Assembly: GCA_023413895.1 (NCBI GenBank)
Contig: JAEZOU010000003.1
Span: forward strand, 62,254-126,253
From: Bacteroidota bacterium
Lineage (GTDB): Bacteria > Bacteroidota > Bacteroidia > Bacteroidales > WCHB1-69
Reading direction: 5' to 3'
Length of the DNA: 64,000 nt
The translations under genes were made by a program, and so were the position numbers. Shown here piece after piece: positions 6,643-60,734 of this stretch. The number at the start of each line of letters is the position of its first letter. The stretch's first letter is position 1. The notes below the pieces were generated by a model, which did no database searches, was not told where the DNA came from, and was given only the letters and a program-made list of their open reading frames with translations.

Positions 6643-6717
6643 GCCGCGTTCGTCTAGCTGGCCCAGGACGCAAGGTTTTCATCCTTGAAATCAGGGGTTC
6701 GAATCCCCTACGCGGTA
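6643..6717 (+). tRNA. tRNA-Glu (anticodon UUC)
   Basis: Hand-folded cloverleaf. Acceptor stem GCCGCGT/ACGCGGT (1 G-U). D stem GTCT/GGAC. Anticodon stem CAAGG/CCTTG with loop TTTTCAT (anticodon TTC). T arm AGGGG-TTCGAAT-CCCCT. Discriminator A. CCA is not encoded. Confidence 0.9.
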
Positions 6718-6752: not shown

Positions 6753-7051
6753 GTTTTTACCTATGCAGAAAATTTGAGTTTTACTCTCTGACTCCTCTAC
6801 ACGCAAAGACCACATACTTGCTACCAGATTGTCCTCTCAAATTTCAGATATTTACCAAACATATACAACTATCGCATGATTCTATTCCACAAACCATATT
6901 TATTCTTTTATTCACATTCTAAAAACCTCAATTTATATCAGACACCAACAACTTATTGCATCCCATCTTAAAACAAAAAATAGCACTTTCCGTCTAGTCT
7001 TTTATTCTATATTTTTACTAAAAACAAGCCTATTTGTATTATTTTTTTTCG

Positions 7052-14255: not shown

Positions 14256-15440
14256 ATGGAGAGCATCAAGCACATATTTAAGATTGGAGTAGGTCCATCT
14301 AGTTCACATACTATGGGTCCTGCCAAAGCAGCCAAAGCATTCAATGAGGCTAACGCTACAGCACACCATTTTAAGATAACCTTATATGGGAGTTTAGCGG
14401 CTACAGGAAAAGGTCACTTTACAGACGTAGCCGTTTTAAAACAATTTCCCAATAACAACGCAAAAATTATCTGGAAACCAGAAATTTTCCTTCCAGAACA
14501 TCCGAATGGTATATTATTTGAATCGTTCAGTGAAACAGATGAACTACTCACGCAACAGAAAGCATTTAGTGTTGGAGGAGGAGACATCTCCTACACAGGC
14601 GAACGAGTTTTAAAAGAGGAGATCTATCCTCTTTCATCAATGGAAGATATTTTACGCTATCTACAAAACCGAAAGTTATGGGAATATGTTTCGGAATGCG
14701 AGGAGAGCGACATTTGGGATTATCTTTCTGAAGTTTGGAAGCAAATGATGAAATGTATCCAAGATGGTTTAGAACACGAAAGTACACTACCGGGCTGTCT
14801 TCAACTTCCGAGAAAAGCTTCCACATTAAATTCGCGTTTACAAGGTATGAATAGTTTCTCTCAGCGTCGTTACTCCTCAATGGTTTACGCTTTAGCGGTT
14901 GCAGAAGAGAACGCTTCGGGACAAACCGTGGTTACGGCACCGACATGTGGTTCTTGCGGCATTCTTCCAGCAGTATTGAGAACCTATTATGAATATTACG
15001 ACAAGAGCGAGAAGAAAATTCTGCATGCACTTGCCACAGCTGGCATTATTGGGAATCTCATCAAGACGAATGCATCAATAAGTGGTGCAGAAGTGGGTTG
15101 TCAAGGTGAAGTTGGAGCAGCTTGTTCAATGGCATCTGGAGCAATTTGTCAACTATTAGGAGGTTCATCGTATCAGGTAGAATACGCAGCGGAGATGGGT
15201 TTAGAGCATCACTTAGGACTTACCTGCGATCCCGTTTGCGGATTGGTACAAGTTCCTTGTATTGAGCGAAATGCTTTCGCGGCAGTACGAGCTATTGACT
15301 CTGGTATGTATGCTTTACTTTCAGATGGAAAACACCTCATCAGCTTTGACAAAGTAGTAAAAGTGATGAAAGCCACAGGTCACGACCTTCCTTCTTTATA
15401 CAAGGAAACTGCGTTAGGAGGACTAGCCGCAGAGCAATAG
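14256..15440 (+). CDS. sdaA: L-serine ammonia-lyase (iron-sulfur-dependent, single chain)
   Basis: 394 aa. Contains GVGPSSSHTMGP, a CGxxP-type Cys cluster (PTCGSCGILPA) and GLTCDPVCGLVQVPCIERN. Confidence 0.85.
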   Translation: MESIKHIFKIGVGPSSSHTMGPAKAAKAFNEANATAHHFKITLYGSLAATGKGHFTDVAVLKQFPNNNAKIIWKPEIFLPEHPNGILFESFSETDELLTQQKAFSVGGGDISYTGERVLKEEIYPLSSMEDILRYLQNRKLWEYVSECEESDIWDYLSEVWKQMMKCIQDGLEHESTLPGCLQLPRKASTLNSRLQGMNSFSQRRYSSMVYALAVAEENASGQTVVTAPTCGSCGILPAVLRTYYEYYDKSEKKILHALATAGIIGNLIKTNASISGAEVGCQGEVGAACSMASGAICQLLGGSSYQVEYAAEMGLEHHLGLTCDPVCGLVQVPCIERNAFAAVRAIDSGMYALLSDGKHLISFDKVVKVMKATGHDLPSLYKETALGGLAAEQ

Positions 15441-15536
15441 TAAACTCAGCAAGGTAAATAGTAAATACAATAGTTTTTCCCTTTTGCAAGAGGAATAAAA
15501 TGATTATTTGCGGAAGGATTTGCGCACAAAAAGAAT

Positions 15537-15708
15537 GCGTGAGGGATTGCAGCGGTTATGAGCGCCGGTTTAGTACTTAAGAACTTAAAAATTAGAACTA
15601 AGAAATTGGATTTTAGGGAGAAAAGGTAGCGAGAGGAATAGGCGCGAAATTTGAGCGGAAAGCCCGACGGCGTGCGTTGGATTAGGCGATAGAAAAGCCG
15701 GCACGCCC
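15537..15708 (+). repeat. GC-rich interspersed intergenic repeat, copy 1 (weaker similarity to copy 3 extends upstream to ~15513)
   Basis: Shares three blocks with the copies at 23426, 58824 and 60436(-): GCGTGAGGGATTGCAGCGGTTATGAGCGCCGG, GGCGCGAAATTTGAGCGGAAAGCCCGACGGCG and GTGCG..AGCCGGCACGCCC. It lies between the convergent sdaA and fabZ. Confidence 0.85.
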
Positions 15709-15737
15709 AAACAAAAAAAACAAAAATTAGCTAATAC

Positions 15738-15772
15738 CTTCAGAGGATTAGCCACTGACCAATCCTCTGAAG
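15738..15772. terminator. strong hairpin between convergent genes (probable fabZ-operon terminator)
   Basis: CTTCAGAGGATT-11 nt-AATCCTCTGAAG, a perfect 12-bp stem 20 nt from the fabZ stop. Confidence 0.6.
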
Positions 15773-22338: not shown

Positions 22339-23202
22339 TTAACTTAAAATGTGTGTATCCATCAAATCCTTAGTTAACGTCATCAAATCCTCGTCAGAAT
22401 TTGACAACACTTGAGATTCCTTTTGAGCGAGCACCATACTTTCAATATTCTTCACTTTAGTTGGCGAACCTTGCAAACCCAAACGTTGCGGATTTGCGTT
22501 AATATCTTCTGCATTCCACTCTATTATTTGAAGATAATCTTTTGATTTAAAAATAGTTGAAACATTATCGAACTTACCTTCATGAAGTGATGTTGCATAC
22601 TTATATTTCATTACTCTAAGAGCATTTCTAAAACGGCAAGATTTTGCAGAACTTTGCACAGTAATTAGAGCAGGAAGAGTAGTTTTTACCACCTCAATAC
22701 CATTTTCGAGTCTGCGTTTTACAACGATTGCATTTGGAGTAACTTCCAGGGCCTCTTCGGCATAAGTAATTTGAGGGATATTCAGTTTTTCAGCCACTTG
22801 TGGCCCTACTTGTGCGGTATCACCATCAATAGCTTGGCGGCCACACAACACCAAATCTACGGCACCCAACTTTTTGATAGCCATAGATAAGGCATAAGAA
22901 GTTGCCAATGTATCGGAGCCTGCAAAACGGCTATCACTAATAACGGTACCCGAATCGGCACCTCTAAATATTGCTTCACGGACAATTTCAGCTGCGCGAG
23001 GCGGTCCCATTGTCAAGACATGCACTTCAGCATTACAGAGATCTTTGATCGATAGTGCCATTTCGAGCGCATTTAAATCTTCGGGATTAAAAACAGCGGC
23101 GAGTGCACCACGATTTATCGTACCATCGGTACGCATAGCCTCCTTACCCACATTTCGGGTATCGGGCACCTGTTTCGCCAATACTACAATTTTCAAACTC
23201 AT
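22339..23202 (-). CDS. etfB: electron transfer flavoprotein subunit beta
   Basis: The start is taken at the second Met (MSLKIVVLAKQVPD), the typical EtfB N-terminus. The listed start at 23223 adds 7 aa. Confidence 0.85.
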   Translation of the reverse strand: MSLKIVVLAKQVPDTRNVGKEAMRTDGTINRGALAAVFNPEDLNALEMALSIKDLCNAEVHVLTMGPPRAAEIVREAIFRGADSGTVISDSRFAGSDTLATSYALSMAIKKLGAVDLVLCGRQAIDGDTAQVGPQVAEKLNIPQITYAEEALEVTPNAIVVKRRLENGIEVVKTTLPALITVQSSAKSCRFRNALRVMKYKYATSLHEGKFDNVSTIFKSKDYLQIIEWNAEDINANPQRLGLQGSPTKVKNIESMVLAQKESQVLSNSDEDLMTLTKDLMDTHILS

Positions 23203-23266
23203 AATAAAAAATTTTGGCTGCAAAACAAATAAAAAAAGGCGATAACAAATCGGAGGATAACAATAT

Positions 23267-23341
23267 TGCAGGTAAAAGGGGGTAATATTCCGTTAAAACG
23301 CAGAATTTGGGGTGTATTTTGGAATAATGTGGTGAATTAAG
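23267..23341 (+). promoter_or_regulatory. second cluster of the GKGGTRAAWT motif, upstream of etfB-etfA-acd
   Basis: GGTAAAA (23271), GGGGGGTAATATT (GGT at 23281), TTGGGGTGTATTTT (23311) and ATGTGGTGAATTAA (23331). The spacings are 10, 30 and 20 nt. Strand orientation is the same as in the fabH-proximal array. Confidence 0.45.
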
Positions 23342-23425
23342 GGCCCAAAGGAGCGTAAAAAGGATAGTATTGGATCGAAAGATGAGTAAAATTTTGCAGA
23401 AAAAAAATAGGAAACGGGGCAAAAT

Positions 23426-23589
23426 GCGTGAGGGATGGAAGCGGTTATGAGCGCCGAATTTAGAACTTAGATCTTAGCATTAGAGTTAGGGAATGGTGAA
23501 GAATTGAAGCGAGAGACAGCGGCGCGAAATTTGAGCGGACAGCCCGACGGCGCGGGCTGGAATTTGTGCGTAGGATAGCCGGCACGCCC
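23426..23589 (+). repeat. GC-rich interspersed intergenic repeat, copy 2
   Basis: GCGTGAGGGATGGAAGCGGTTATGAGCGCCGA ... GGCGCGAAATTTGAGCGGACAGCCCGACGGCG ... GTGCGTAGGATAGCCGGCACGCCC. It lies between the divergent etfB and rpe promoters. Confidence 0.85.
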
Positions 23590-23659
23590 AAATAAAACTG
23601 AAGATTCAAAAGGCAAATTAAAACACCGATTTTGATAGAGAAAAAATCAAAAAAAATTA

Positions 23660-58823: not shown

Positions 58824-58995
58824 GCGTTAGGGATTGCAGCGGTTATGAGCGCCGGTTTTAGAATCTAGAATCTAGAGTTAGAACTTAGAATTGGATTTAG
58901 GGAAAGATTATAGTGAGAGAATGAGGCGCGAAATTTGAGCGGAAAGCCCGACGGCGAGCGGGTAGCATCGTGCGCAGGAAAGAGCCGGAACGCCC
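58824..58995 (+). repeat. GC-rich interspersed intergenic repeat, copy 3 (5' extension similar to copy 1 from ~58787)
   Basis: GCGTTAGGGATTGCAGCGGTTATGAGCGCCGG ... GGCGCGAAATTTGAGCGGAAAGCCCGACGGCG ... GTGCGCAGGAAAGAGCCGGAACGCCC. It lies between convergent genes. Confidence 0.85.
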
Positions 58996-59005
58996 AAATA
59001 AAAAA

Positions 59006-59542: not shown

Positions 59543-60364
59543 TTACAGATTCCAAAAAGAGAAATCAATATTAGCTTCAATACTATTTTCAATCTTATCG
59601 TCTAGTTGCGGAAAGAAATCTATTTTTGTCATTGCCTCCACCTCATCAACGGTTTTGCAGAAAGTTTTTAAAGGTCGCGTTCCGGCCTTGTTTTCAAAGT
59701 AAAAGCCGATAGCTTGATAGGTTCCGCCCATAGGAATCAACAATACCTTATAGAAAGCTTCAGGTACTGAAATATCACAACTTCCAATTACTGAACAATT
59801 TGAAGACACAATAGGTCCACAAACCACATAAACAGATCCATATTGTTGCGCCCAATTGCGCACCTTCTCCTCCAAACTTTTCCAAACACCAGCATTTAGA
59901 TTATGATTTTGAGGACAAATATTAGACAGATAAAAACTCTCTCGCATTGCTTGTTCGTCCCACTTCATATCTCCAGCAGGGGCCATGTGGCCGCGATCAT
60001 AACCTGAATTGGAGTAATCGCGAGTTTCCGGGCAAACACCACGAACTTCTGGGTCAGGAATAAAATGTCGCGCTCGTTCACATGTTCCTTCACTCTCAAA
60101 CTTTGTGAGTTCATACGCTACCCAATTGGGAATTCGCCAATCTGCATTGTAGCTCACCGTAAACCCCTTATGTTCAACAACCTGCGATGTTCTATTTTGA
60201 GTAAAAACAGGAATTTCTAACTTATCTATCTGAACTATTTCAAAATATTCCTTCTCCTCAGCTGCTATATTTTTCTTAGTTTGTGCCAAGAATAGCAACA
60301 ATAAAACAATTCCCAAAACAATTACCAACATCGACACCGCTGGTGATTTTAATCTCTTTGCCAT
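59543..60364 (-). CDS. DNA/RNA non-specific endonuclease (NucA/EndoG-type, beta-beta-alpha-Me), membrane-anchored/secreted
   Basis: The start is taken at MAKRLKSPAVSMLVIVLG (60364), 24 nt downstream of a minus-strand TAATTTTG box (60388-60395). The catalytic motif is SGYDRGHMAPAGD, followed by NICPQNHNLN. Confidence 0.8.
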   Translation of the reverse strand: MAKRLKSPAVSMLVIVLGIVLLLLFLAQTKKNIAAEEKEYFEIVQIDKLEIPVFTQNRTSQVVEHKGFTVSYNADWRIPNWVAYELTKFESEGTCERARHFIPDPEVRGVCPETRDYSNSGYDRGHMAPAGDMKWDEQAMRESFYLSNICPQNHNLNAGVWKSLEEKVRNWAQQYGSVYVVCGPIVSSNCSVIGSCDISVPEAFYKVLLIPMGGTYQAIGFYFENKAGTRPLKTFCKTVDEVEAMTKIDFFPQLDDKIENSIEANIDFSFWNL

Positions 60365-60435
60365 CTTATAATTTTTAGAATTTTGTGCAAAATTACAATT
60401 TTTATTAATGTGAAAAAGATTTATAAAAATTATTA

Positions 60436-60609
60436 GGGCGTGCCGGCTTTTCCCACGCACAAGCCACCGCGCTGCCGTCAGGCTTTCCGCTCAAATTTCG
60501 CGCCTCTTTCTCTCGCTACAATTTCTCTTTAAAATCCAATTTCTAAGCTTCAAGCTCTAAATTCTAAAATTCATGGCCGGCGCTCATAACCGCTGCAATC
60601 CTTCACGCA
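60436..60609 (-). repeat. GC-rich interspersed intergenic repeat, copy 4 (inverted orientation)
   Basis: The reverse complement reads GCGTGAAGGATTGCAGCGGTTATGAGCGCCGG ... GGCGCGAAATTTGAGCGGAAAGCCTGACGGCA ... GTGCGTGGGAAAAGCCGGCACGCCC. It lies between the divergent nuclease and hydF-like promoters. Confidence 0.85.
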
Positions 60610-60734
60610 CCCATTTGCCTCTACCTCATTGCACTTGCAACAAACACCTCTTGCGTTCTAAAAAACACAAACTTCCAAATACCAAAAGCTTCTGAAAGAT
60701 TCTCAAAACATTCTTTAAATAGCAAAAAAAATCA

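Follow-up and report, generated by a model that had tools for sequence, protein, structure and literature searches.

A putative expanded subfamily of the orphan motif Flavo-1 in Bacteroidales: a three-way-junction element, apparently inserted and then conserved in place

A GC-rich repeat lies in several intergenic spacers of a 64,000-nucleotide stretch of a Bacteroidota genome (Bacteroidales, WCHB1-69; contig JAEZOU010000003.1, positions 62,254 to 126,253; hereafter the window), raising the questions of which family it belongs to, how it reached these spacers and what keeps its copies alike. A first-pass annotation, made from the letters of the window, had listed four copies, all intergenic, built of three conserved blocks (A, B and C) around an AT-rich core of variable length, two of them between convergent gene ends and two between divergent starts, with no transposase nearby. 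All of this was borne out, with refined coordinates. An nhmmer profile made from the four copies retrieved exactly these four in the window (E values of 1e-58 to 1e-64), their covariance-model scores are 175-206 bits, and the block A 16-mer GCGGTTATGAGCGCCG occurs four times, against 0.00 expected from 100 dinucleotide shuffles. Over an alignment of about 190 nt the three blocks are invariant, and the middle is AT-rich and length-variable; the GC content of the window is 37%. Copy 1 is flanked by convergent serine dehydratase and FabA-like genes and copy 3 by convergent TonB-dependent receptor and DUF456 genes; copy 2 lies between the divergent genes for ETF-beta and ribulose-phosphate epimerase (Rpe), and copy 4 between those for a non-specific endonuclease and HydF. 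A Pfam scan of the window found no transposase, integrase, reverse transcriptase (RT) or HUH gene, and the remaining genes have housekeeping functions only, apart from 8 open reading frames (ORFs) without a Pfam match. We propose, with a probability of roughly 0.6, that the repeat is an expanded subfamily of Flavo-1 class a (Rfam RF01705) whose copies were inserted and then selected, behaving much like the repetitive extragenic palindromes (REPs), bacterial interspersed mosaic elements (BIMEs) and REPINs of other bacteria.

The first-pass annotation had overlooked that the blocks pair with one another. According to RNAalifold, block A is the pairing partner of both B and C; the blocks are the two sides of a conserved fold, a three-way junction on one strand. 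The closing stem is P1 (5 bp, GCGUG/CACGC). The long rod P2 runs from its base through GGG/CCC, an A.G mismatch, UU/AA, a GCA/GGA loop, GC/GC, a GGUU/UUGA loop, AU/AU, a GA/GAA loop and GCGCC/GGCGC to the tip, and P3 is a hairpin (CGGC...GCCG) of 33-36 nt, or of about 105 nt in one subfamily. CC and an A-rich tail follow on the 3' side of P1. The parts lie in the window as follows:

15537-15712, plus strand: copy 1, full element; P1 at 15537-15541/15702-15706 (GCGTG/CACGC)
15543-15566, plus strand: copy 1, P2 5' strand, which is block A (GGG-A-TT-GCA-GC-GGTT-AT-GA-GCGCC)
15567-15640, plus strand: copy 1, variable tip, AT-rich and C-poor, with 8-nt repeats (TTAGAAnT)n
15641-15665, plus strand: copy 1, P2 3' strand
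15641-15667, plus strand: copy 1, block B, the P2 3' strand plus the junction GA (GGCGC-GAA-AT-TTGA-GC-GGA-AA-G-CCC-GA)
15668-15700, plus strand: copy 1, P3
15707-15712, plus strand: copy 1, tail (CCAAAC)
23426-23593, plus strand: copy 2, full element; P1 at 23426-23430/23583-23587, tip at 23456-23520, P3 at 23548-23581
58824-58999, plus strand: copy 3, full element; P1 at 58824-58828/58989-58993, tip at 58854-58924, P3 at 58952-58987
60432-60608, minus strand: copy 4, full element; P1 at 60604-60608/60438-60442, tip at 60505-60578, P3 at 60444-60477
6764-6901, minus strand: fifth copy, a decayed relic (11.8 bits, E 0.23 with the full-length covariance model)

Compensatory change among copies supports this fold. 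In the covariation set of 75 distinct copies (the pooled set of sites numbers 62 distinct ones), 99.9% of 1,725 pair cells hold standard pairs, against 92.0 +/- 0.4% in shuffled data, and none of 500 shuffles reached the observed value. Both sides have changed at 10 of the 23 pairs, in 108 cells versus 20.7 in shuffles; when the partner was slid by 1-3 columns, at most 3 cells were doubly changed. P1 occurs as GCGUG/CACGC, GCGUU/AACGC, GCGCA/UGCGC and GCAUU/AAUGC, and the other stems as GGG/CCC, AGG/CCU or GAG/CUC, as UU/AA, UA/UA or UG/CA, and as GCGCC/GGCGC or GCCGC/GCGGC, while the purine-rich internal loops of P2 do not vary among copies. Only four one-sided changes were seen, all of them G.U wobbles on the plus strand. 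The minimum free energy as RNA is -48 kcal/mol for the plus strand versus -33 kcal/mol for the minus strand, the plus strand folding better in 62 of 62 copies, and composition is also strand-asymmetric (6% C in the tip, 2% G in the tail). Since the wobbles fall on the plus strand only and this strand folds better, it is one defined strand that folds; the tip of P2, whose structure is no more stable than that of shuffles (z about -0.5), lies outside the constraint.

Several resemblances to known RNAs or signals did not withstand inspection. The hammerhead-like core UUAUGAG-[helix]-CGAAA lacks C3 and G5 and its strands pair with each other, leaving no third helix and no Rfam ribozyme match; self-cleaving ribozymes in general (hammerhead, twister, pistol, hatchet, HDV-like and others) gave no Rfam match even at E<=10. 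The tRNA-like 'CCA' after P1 comes with neither a discriminator base nor a T-arm-like hairpin. The 8-nt repeat does place stop codons in all six frames, which is uninformative for an AT-rich stretch of 190 nt.

The first-pass annotation could not assign the repeat to a family, and it took a match to a described family as evidence against novelty. Such a match exists: Flavo-1 and the base of P2 align and have one structure in common, the Flavo-1 seed members match blocks A and B, and the claim of a new family falls with it. Rfam was searched, as the annotation had suggested. No family reached its curated threshold, the gathering-threshold scan of the window returning tRNA only, and the Flavo-1 alignment appeared in a permissive scan, for copy 3, at 17.8 bits (E 0.22; gathering threshold 42); it was not reported for copy 1 or for the copy at L033 (L numbers denote the loci collected here). 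In that alignment GGGAUUGCAGCGG...GAGCGGAAAGCCCGA stands against the consensus ccGAUuGaAGcGGA...uAgCGgAaAGCggGA with the identical structure <<<-<<---<<---, and the 33 central positions of the model are skipped over 93 nt. The score is only 17.8 because P2 is expanded here. Weak Rfam matches to IMES-1, BTnc201, Bacteroidales-2 and RAGATH-33 were dismissed, as none of them recurred from copy to copy, and a literature search found no paper naming the sequence under another name.

The seed alignment of 2010 (Weinberg et al., PMC2864571) is closer still, its class-a rows matching blocks A and B base for base. The Flavobacterium psychrophilum seed NC_009613.1/727266 reads GCGUGAGGGAUUGCAGCGGU...AAGCGGAAAGCCCGAC, the same as blocks A and B (its row is GCGUGAGGGAUU.GCAGC.G...AAGCGGAAAGCCCGACC), so that the first 13 nt of block A equal the published 5' half and the last 15 nt of block B the published 3' half. 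The Flavo-1 basal hairpin is present, with GAUUGnAGCGG on its 5' side and AGCGGAAAGCnnGA on its 3' side, and the same pairs covary in our 75 copies. The Flavo-1 distal hairpin of about 33 positions (e.g. GGAAAUCC...GGAUU) is not matched, only GGUUA being common with some seeds; what takes its place here is GGUU-AU-GA-GCGCC / GGCGC-GAA-AU-UUGA together with a tip of 65-88 nt. The likeness extends past the published motif. In the flanked 2010 alignment, taken with two Bacteroides plasmid copies (p5482, pBF9343), class-a copies run 3' into a variable hairpin, followed by CACGC (AACGC if the 5' strand is GCGUU, AAUGC if it is GCAUU) and then by CC and an A-rich stretch. In a table of 12 classical copies and the four from the window, P1 is paired at 5/5 positions in 15 of 16 and at 4/5 in one, with three covarying types, and the junction is common to all (J=A, J=GA, a 1-nt joiner, P3 of 8-38 nt, CCA... 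tail). The sole systematic difference was the P1-to-P1' length, 75-132 nt in classical versus 162-171 nt in window copies.

Judged by these alignments, the element is most plausibly a lineage-specific, P2-expanded subfamily of Flavo-1 class a, and the published motif and Rfam model, which omit P1, P3 and the tail, appear to represent one arm of the three-way junction only. The two share a phylum (Bacteroidota), a multi-copy and intergenic habit (128 copies in F. psychrophilum), a basal hairpin of 3 bp, an A.G mismatch, 2 covarying bp, a 3x3 purine loop and 2 bp, the near-identical sequences GCGUGAGGGAUUGCAGCGGUUA and AGCGGAAAGCCCGAC, the closing-stem variants GCGUG/CACGC, GCGUU/AACGC and GCAUU/AAUGC, a variable hairpin, the CC plus A-rich tail, and a placement without regard to gene orientation. 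By contrast, P2 is about twice as long here, with the GGUU/UUGA and GA/GAA loops and the GCGCC/GGCGC helix in place of the classical distal stem and a 65-88-nt AT-rich tip bearing 8-nt repeats, and P3 has the base CGGC/GCCG rather than CCnn/nnGG. No short classical Flavo-1 was found in any locus collected here. What is new, then, is an expanded variant of a known orphan motif, together with data on the motif's true extent and evolutionary behaviour.

Nearly all Flavo-1 members were reported from Flavobacteria; the motif, which shows covariation and has stems of variable length, was rated as probably a non-coding RNA (PMC2864571), and a review counts it among the most abundant Rfam small RNA (sRNA) families. 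Flavo-1 ranges over Bacteroidota chromosomes and conjugative plasmids. In the F. psychrophilum transcriptome (PMC9723704) the 128 occurrences lie sense or antisense, many are untranscribed, and there are examples in which the motif's own strand is at background and the opposite strand is expressed. The tip repeats (TTAGAAnT)n are imperfect (e.g. 15567-15640 and 58854-58924) and resemble the CUUAGAA repeats just 3' of a classical Flavo-1a copy of F. johnsoniae (NC_009441.1/6000123-5999639; 2010 supplement, PMC2864571); the stem may therefore have taken up an independent short repeat. The hairpins of Flavo-1 class b (PMC2864571, supplement file 151) are bordered by UAGCC (5') and AUAGC(U) (3'); this pair looks like a direct repeat and might represent a target duplication or else the termini of a longer unit. 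The two halves of these hairpins are also direct repeats of GAUUGnAGCGGAAA.

The expectation of many non-coding, intergenic copies genome-wide proved correct. An 18-mer of block B, scanned across 185,579 species genomes, matched about 50 loci; chance matches in GC-rich genomes aside, all were in one metagenome-assembled genome (MAG), 'uncultured Bacteroidales bacterium SRR6425803_bin.35' (CALGTS01), plus one contig. This extra contig (L029, JAZNWD010000024.1, 2.4 kb, binned as Elusimicrobiaceae) holds a full copy of 183 bits; mis-binning of a Bacteroidales contig is the likeliest explanation, rather than cross-phylum spread. The MAG has at least 55 copies, and identity between the window and its contig CALGTS010000025 is 90-93%, indicating that the window comes from a sister genome; all four window copies have counterparts at orthologous sites there. 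A gapped pattern search added 82 loci from the JGI metagenomes Ga0233361/62/64/66 (the same species as the MAG) and matched no viral contig, and blastn against plasmid and phage collections gave no match to the expanded element. Metagenome matches beyond the lineage (L076, L096 and others) were a tRNA plus the start of tuf, and thus due to chance. The subfamily with a P3 of about 105 nt shares GCAGAAAG...AUAAGCGAACGC (L002, L016, L040, L065, L033 578-846, L132 and L133). One orthologous site, with flanks 98-99% identical, is polymorphic for a P3 difference of about 70 nt (L083 2286-2554 and L113 1255-1523 versus L063 2292-2487), probably a recent indel or a conversion between copies.

Comparison of occupied with empty orthologous sites, a check proposed by the first-pass annotation, indicated how the copies arose. 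Syntenic contigs of relatives were collected from homologues of the endonuclease and of Rpe; the element-free ones come from the lineages SRR292779xx and SRR10800394, and further look-ups based on Rpe brought in no additional lineage. The copy-4 site is empty in L160, a relative whose endonuclease is 75% identical and whose HydF-endonuclease region is without the element; its alignment with the window runs to about 5 nt before P1 and resumes at TAATAAAA, just upstream of the promoter TAACTTTG. The same contig ends within an element at the copy-3 site, with the AACGC variant of copy 3. That site is empty elsewhere, the DUF456-TonB spacer being 28 nt in L161 and 9 nt in L162-164, as is the copy-1 site in L165-L173 and L169, where 20-99 nt separate the serine dehydratase and FabA genes. 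The covariance model found no copy anywhere in the loci of the element-free relatives, and no decayed relic was detectable at the copy-2 site of the element-free lineage. With empty orthologous sites at three of the four positions, we conclude that the copies are insertions.

The ends bear few marks of a known mechanism. No terminal inverted repeats (TIRs) extend beyond the 5-bp P1, which is the only inversion at the ends and covaries, unlike TIRs recognised as sequence. Target-site duplications (TSDs) did not exceed a mismatched-flank control, whether sought as exact repeats of at least 5 nt or by wide-flank local alignment, a test that is blind below about 5 bp given that the ends are known to within about 5 nt. 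No multi-copy family of transposase-like ORFs was found in 1.17 Mb around the copies. The lack of TIRs, detectable TSDs or a linked transposase points to movement by machinery acting in trans. A similarity of about 27 nt at copy 1, between the serine dehydratase 3' end and a terminator, was considered as a TSD and discarded, the same similarity being present in the element-free L169. The 3' end of the serine dehydratase gene (15411-15440) resembles the nearby bidirectional terminator hairpin (15737-15771, GGAGGATTAGC...) with or without the element, and in L165 (2040-2075) the gene runs into the hairpin; L169 was compared over 1880-1990. A (GTG)CGCAA(T)-like motif lies upstream of P1, CGCA being found at -14 to -9 in 26 of 62 sites (42%) versus about 5% of controls; examples are 15523-15529 (TGCGCAC) and 60620-60630, and some sites have several GTGCG-like motifs. 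An element extended at its 5' end to include this motif was rejected, for the motif is already in the closest empty site (L160) and does not covary with the ATTGC/ATAGA variants; it more likely reflects a target or context preference. The picture is mixed for palindrome-associated transposable elements (PATEs) derived from IS200/IS605, which have subterminal hairpins, a conserved 4-5-nt target directly 5' of the left end and a TnpA(Y1) partner but neither TIR nor TSD: the ends here show neither repeat and the motif is enriched, yet it lies 9-14 nt off the end, the fold spans the entire element, and TnpA was not seen.

Once inserted, the copies have diverged very unevenly along their length. 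Across the four ortholog pairs of window and MAG, the cores differ at 4 of 340 positions (1.2%), all four outside pairs, and divergence reaches 33% in tips, 26% in P3 loops, 32% in 5' flanks and 16% in 3' flanks; for scale, gyrA differs at 19% of third and 0.8% of second codon positions. Private variants are kept within each pair: copy 2 has TG/CA in the second P2 stem segment (GGGATGGAAGC...GGACAGCCC), as does its ortholog in L032; copy 3 has P1 as GCGTT/AACGC, with AACGC also in its ortholog L003 and in the partial ortholog of L160 (11362-11390); and copy 4 has AGG/CCT in the first P2 segment. The ortholog of copy 1 is at L038 3840-4037. Retention of private variants site by site means that homogenising gene conversion is not the cause of the uniformity, and copies 2 and 4, between divergent promoters, are conserved as well as the others. 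This pattern indicates that the junction core and P2 loops of each copy are under purifying selection in place and that the tip and P3 loop are not. Each copy would be useful to the cell, or a damaged copy harmful; a purely selfish repeat would not be so held. The relic at 6764-6901 (minus strand) shows decay once constraint is lost, being about 40% different from the intact MAG copy at the same site (L054 2922-3112, itself the most divergent of the intact copies), mainly by changes from G/C to A/T. It sits 3' of the tRNA gene at 6643-6717 (plus strand) and of that gene's terminator.

By type of spacer, the sites comprise 14 convergent and 11 divergent ones, with 14 in tandem co-oriented and 6 in tandem anti-oriented position, a distribution that is roughly that of random intergenic insertion with a mild excess of co-orientation. 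The folded strand is the locally G-rich one at 40 of 62 sites (mean skew +0.03; t-test p = 0.003, binomial p = 0.03), a bias not separable from gene orientation. The 3' flank opens with a run of 10-20 nt that is 63% A and 2% G. At two empty sites this run is already present, as the T-tract of the convergent terminator (copy 1) and as TAATAAAA (copy 4), so the 'tail' is partly target sequence; at copy 3 the DUF456 stop codon directly adjoins the A-run. Upstream genes are often terminated before the element by their own terminator, and an exact TAnnTTTG -7 box in sense orientation lies 30-70 nt downstream at 27 of 62 sites, against 6 of 62 in the 5' flank. An example is 60361-60431 (minus strand), upstream of the endonuclease gene, where the same promoter is found in the empty L160 site. 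A promoter of the element's own was rejected: across the 62 5' flanks, no Bacteroidetes-type promoter (TAnnTTTG) keeps a fixed distance upstream. What selection leaves in a compact genome is the space that separates a terminator or stop codon from the following promoter, so that the placement of surviving copies requires no functional explanation. The listed endonuclease ORF (59543-60460, minus strand) has a GTG start inside copy 4; homologues of 273 aa cover 90% of it, which puts the true start downstream. A 92-aa ORF adjoining copy 2 (23144-23422, minus strand) is probably spurious. About 200 nt upstream of ETF-beta (23224-23420; L165 9531-9760, L169 9522-9750) are conserved in relatives whose proteins are 84-88% identical, also in lineages that lack the element, and could be a leader, a 5' untranslated region (UTR) or an unannotated small gene.

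Other repeat systems offer partial parallels. Like the REP/BIME and REPIN sequences of Proteobacteria, the element is short, GC-rich, structured, multi-copy and strictly intergenic without a transposase of its own, is inherited vertically for long at orthologous sites, folds as a single strand and takes either orientation to genes. In REPINs, by contrast, two REPs of 20-40 nt in inverted orientation make up a simple long hairpin, and a single-copy RAYT (HUH) gene goes with them; the element here branches into a three-way junction, and the halves of its P2 look more like direct than inverted repeats. No RAYT-like (HUH Y1) gene occurs in the window. BOX elements of Streptococcus pneumoniae (boxA-boxB(n)-boxC) likewise have conserved terminal modules paired around a variable, repeat-bearing middle, about 100 intergenic copies and no known transposase, but they are unrelated in sequence and phylum and vary in the number of 45-bp modules, not in an 8-nt-repeat tip and P3 length. 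We know of no comparable measurement of purifying selection in place for BOX. MITEs (transposable elements of the miniature inverted-repeat kind; Correia, Porphyromonas gingivalis MITEs, PMC4596501) are also small, non-coding, interspersed and insertion-polymorphic, some with internal tandem repeats; they are defined by TIRs matching an insertion sequence and by TSDs, neither of which was found here.

How, then, are insertion and conservation to be reconciled? On the reading we prefer, copies of this Flavo-1a subfamily would insert at 'safe' intergenic positions, past terminators or stop codons and before promoters, and the junction fold would serve as the recognition surface for a trans-acting factor. 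It would act largely independently of the orientation of its neighbours, as single-stranded DNA (ssDNA) or as opportunistically transcribed RNA more probably than as a dedicated sRNA gene, which is less likely because divergent-promoter copies are equally conserved, no promoter accompanies the element and Flavo-1 is often untranscribed in F. psychrophilum. Several points weigh against it. No trans-acting protein was found in the window or in the 1.17 Mb around copies; the selection estimate comes from four ortholog pairs in one pair of genomes; exact insertion boundaries are well defined at one site only (copy 4 versus L160); and Flavo-1 membership rests on alignment to seed sequences, with the model below threshold (17.8 versus 42 bits). 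The weak orientation bias (the G-rich strand at 40/62 sites, and 28:17 in favour of co-orientation with the upstream gene) would fit a link to the replication strand or to transcription, either one. Functional RNAs typically have purine-rich internal loops (G.A, U.U) and peripheral stems that can expand, and Flavo-1 is filed in Rfam as an sRNA. These last traits suit a family of functional RNAs, either paralogous sRNA genes or a cis-acting UTR module (a stabiliser, processing site or insulator) made from the plus strand, with a junction that would act by binding a protein or a ligand or by catalysis. Flavo-1 is classed as a likely structured non-coding RNA by Rfam and in 2010 (PMC2864571), the one-sided changes are all G.U on the plus strand, that strand folds better in every copy and is strongly asymmetric in composition, the G.A/U.U-rich loops are invariant while P2 and P3 are expandable, and co-orientation is in mild excess (28:17 with the upstream gene; 14:6 tandem co- versus anti-oriented). 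We nevertheless consider this rather unlikely, given the absence of a promoter at a fixed upstream distance (an exact TAnnTTTG in only 6/62 5' flanks), the quarter of copies that lie between divergent promoters with no read-through from neighbours (copies 2 and 4 being equally conserved), the terminators that upstream genes often place ahead of the element, the many F. psychrophilum copies that are untranscribed or antisense to a transcript, the lack of precedent for sixty to 128 paralogous sRNA genes per genome, and the failure of any ribozyme or riboswitch model to match.

That the repeat is nothing but a selfish, non-autonomous transposon (a MITE or PATE), uniform through recent amplification or gene conversion, seems to us very unlikely. 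Its multi-copy, intergenic habit, a subfamily limited to one lineage, the empty sites in relatives, the presence on conjugative plasmids in other genera and the P3 indel of about 70 nt between strains at one site all accord with such an origin, as does the finding of all combinations of stem variants among copies, which suggests recombination or recurrent mutation. Yet orthologous cores are 98.8% identical despite 19% divergence at third codon positions and 26-33% in tips, P3 loops and 5' flanks, private variants persist per site and so rule against homogenising conversion, copy 3 is common even to the relative at 75% amino acid identity, TIRs do not exceed 5 bp nor TSDs the control, and 1.17 Mb of flanks hold no transposase family. 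Least credible of all is a wholly new family, or a retroelement resembling short interspersed elements (SINEs) whose A-tail betrays spread by reverse transcription. It would account for the lack of an Rfam family at threshold, of blastn matches in plasmid and phage collections and of viral contig matches, and for the A-rich, G-poor 3' tail of 10-20 nt; it is contradicted by the clear kinship with Flavo-1 class a, by the A-run that partly pre-exists in the empty copy-1 and copy-4 sites, by the failure to find variable-length TSDs and by the absence of an RT gene from the window and the 1.17 Mb of flanks.

The preferred reading, of a Flavo-1a subfamily inserted and then selected, bears on a motif that has been an orphan since 2010 and that few Rfam entries exceed in abundance, some genomes having over 100 copies. 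Because the Flavo-1 model omits P1, P3 and the tail, current annotation shortens the element and misses its expanded relatives. The clean occupied and empty orthologous sites show the element to be inserted DNA, and its inserted copies are conserved as tightly as second codon positions, which is not expected of a purely selfish repeat. Together, the larger junction, the insertion and the conservation in place argue for a trans-acting partner, and the natural variants, with short or long P2 and short or long P3, are usable for experiments. More speculatively, and with doubt prevailing in our own view, Flavo-1 class a might comprise phylum-wide structured mobile modules kept by purifying selection, the junction, as ssDNA or RNA, docking a Bacteroidota-specific enzyme or nucleoid factor. 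If true, this would be a partnership like that of REPs and RAYTs, or a new ribonucleoprotein unique to Bacteroidota.

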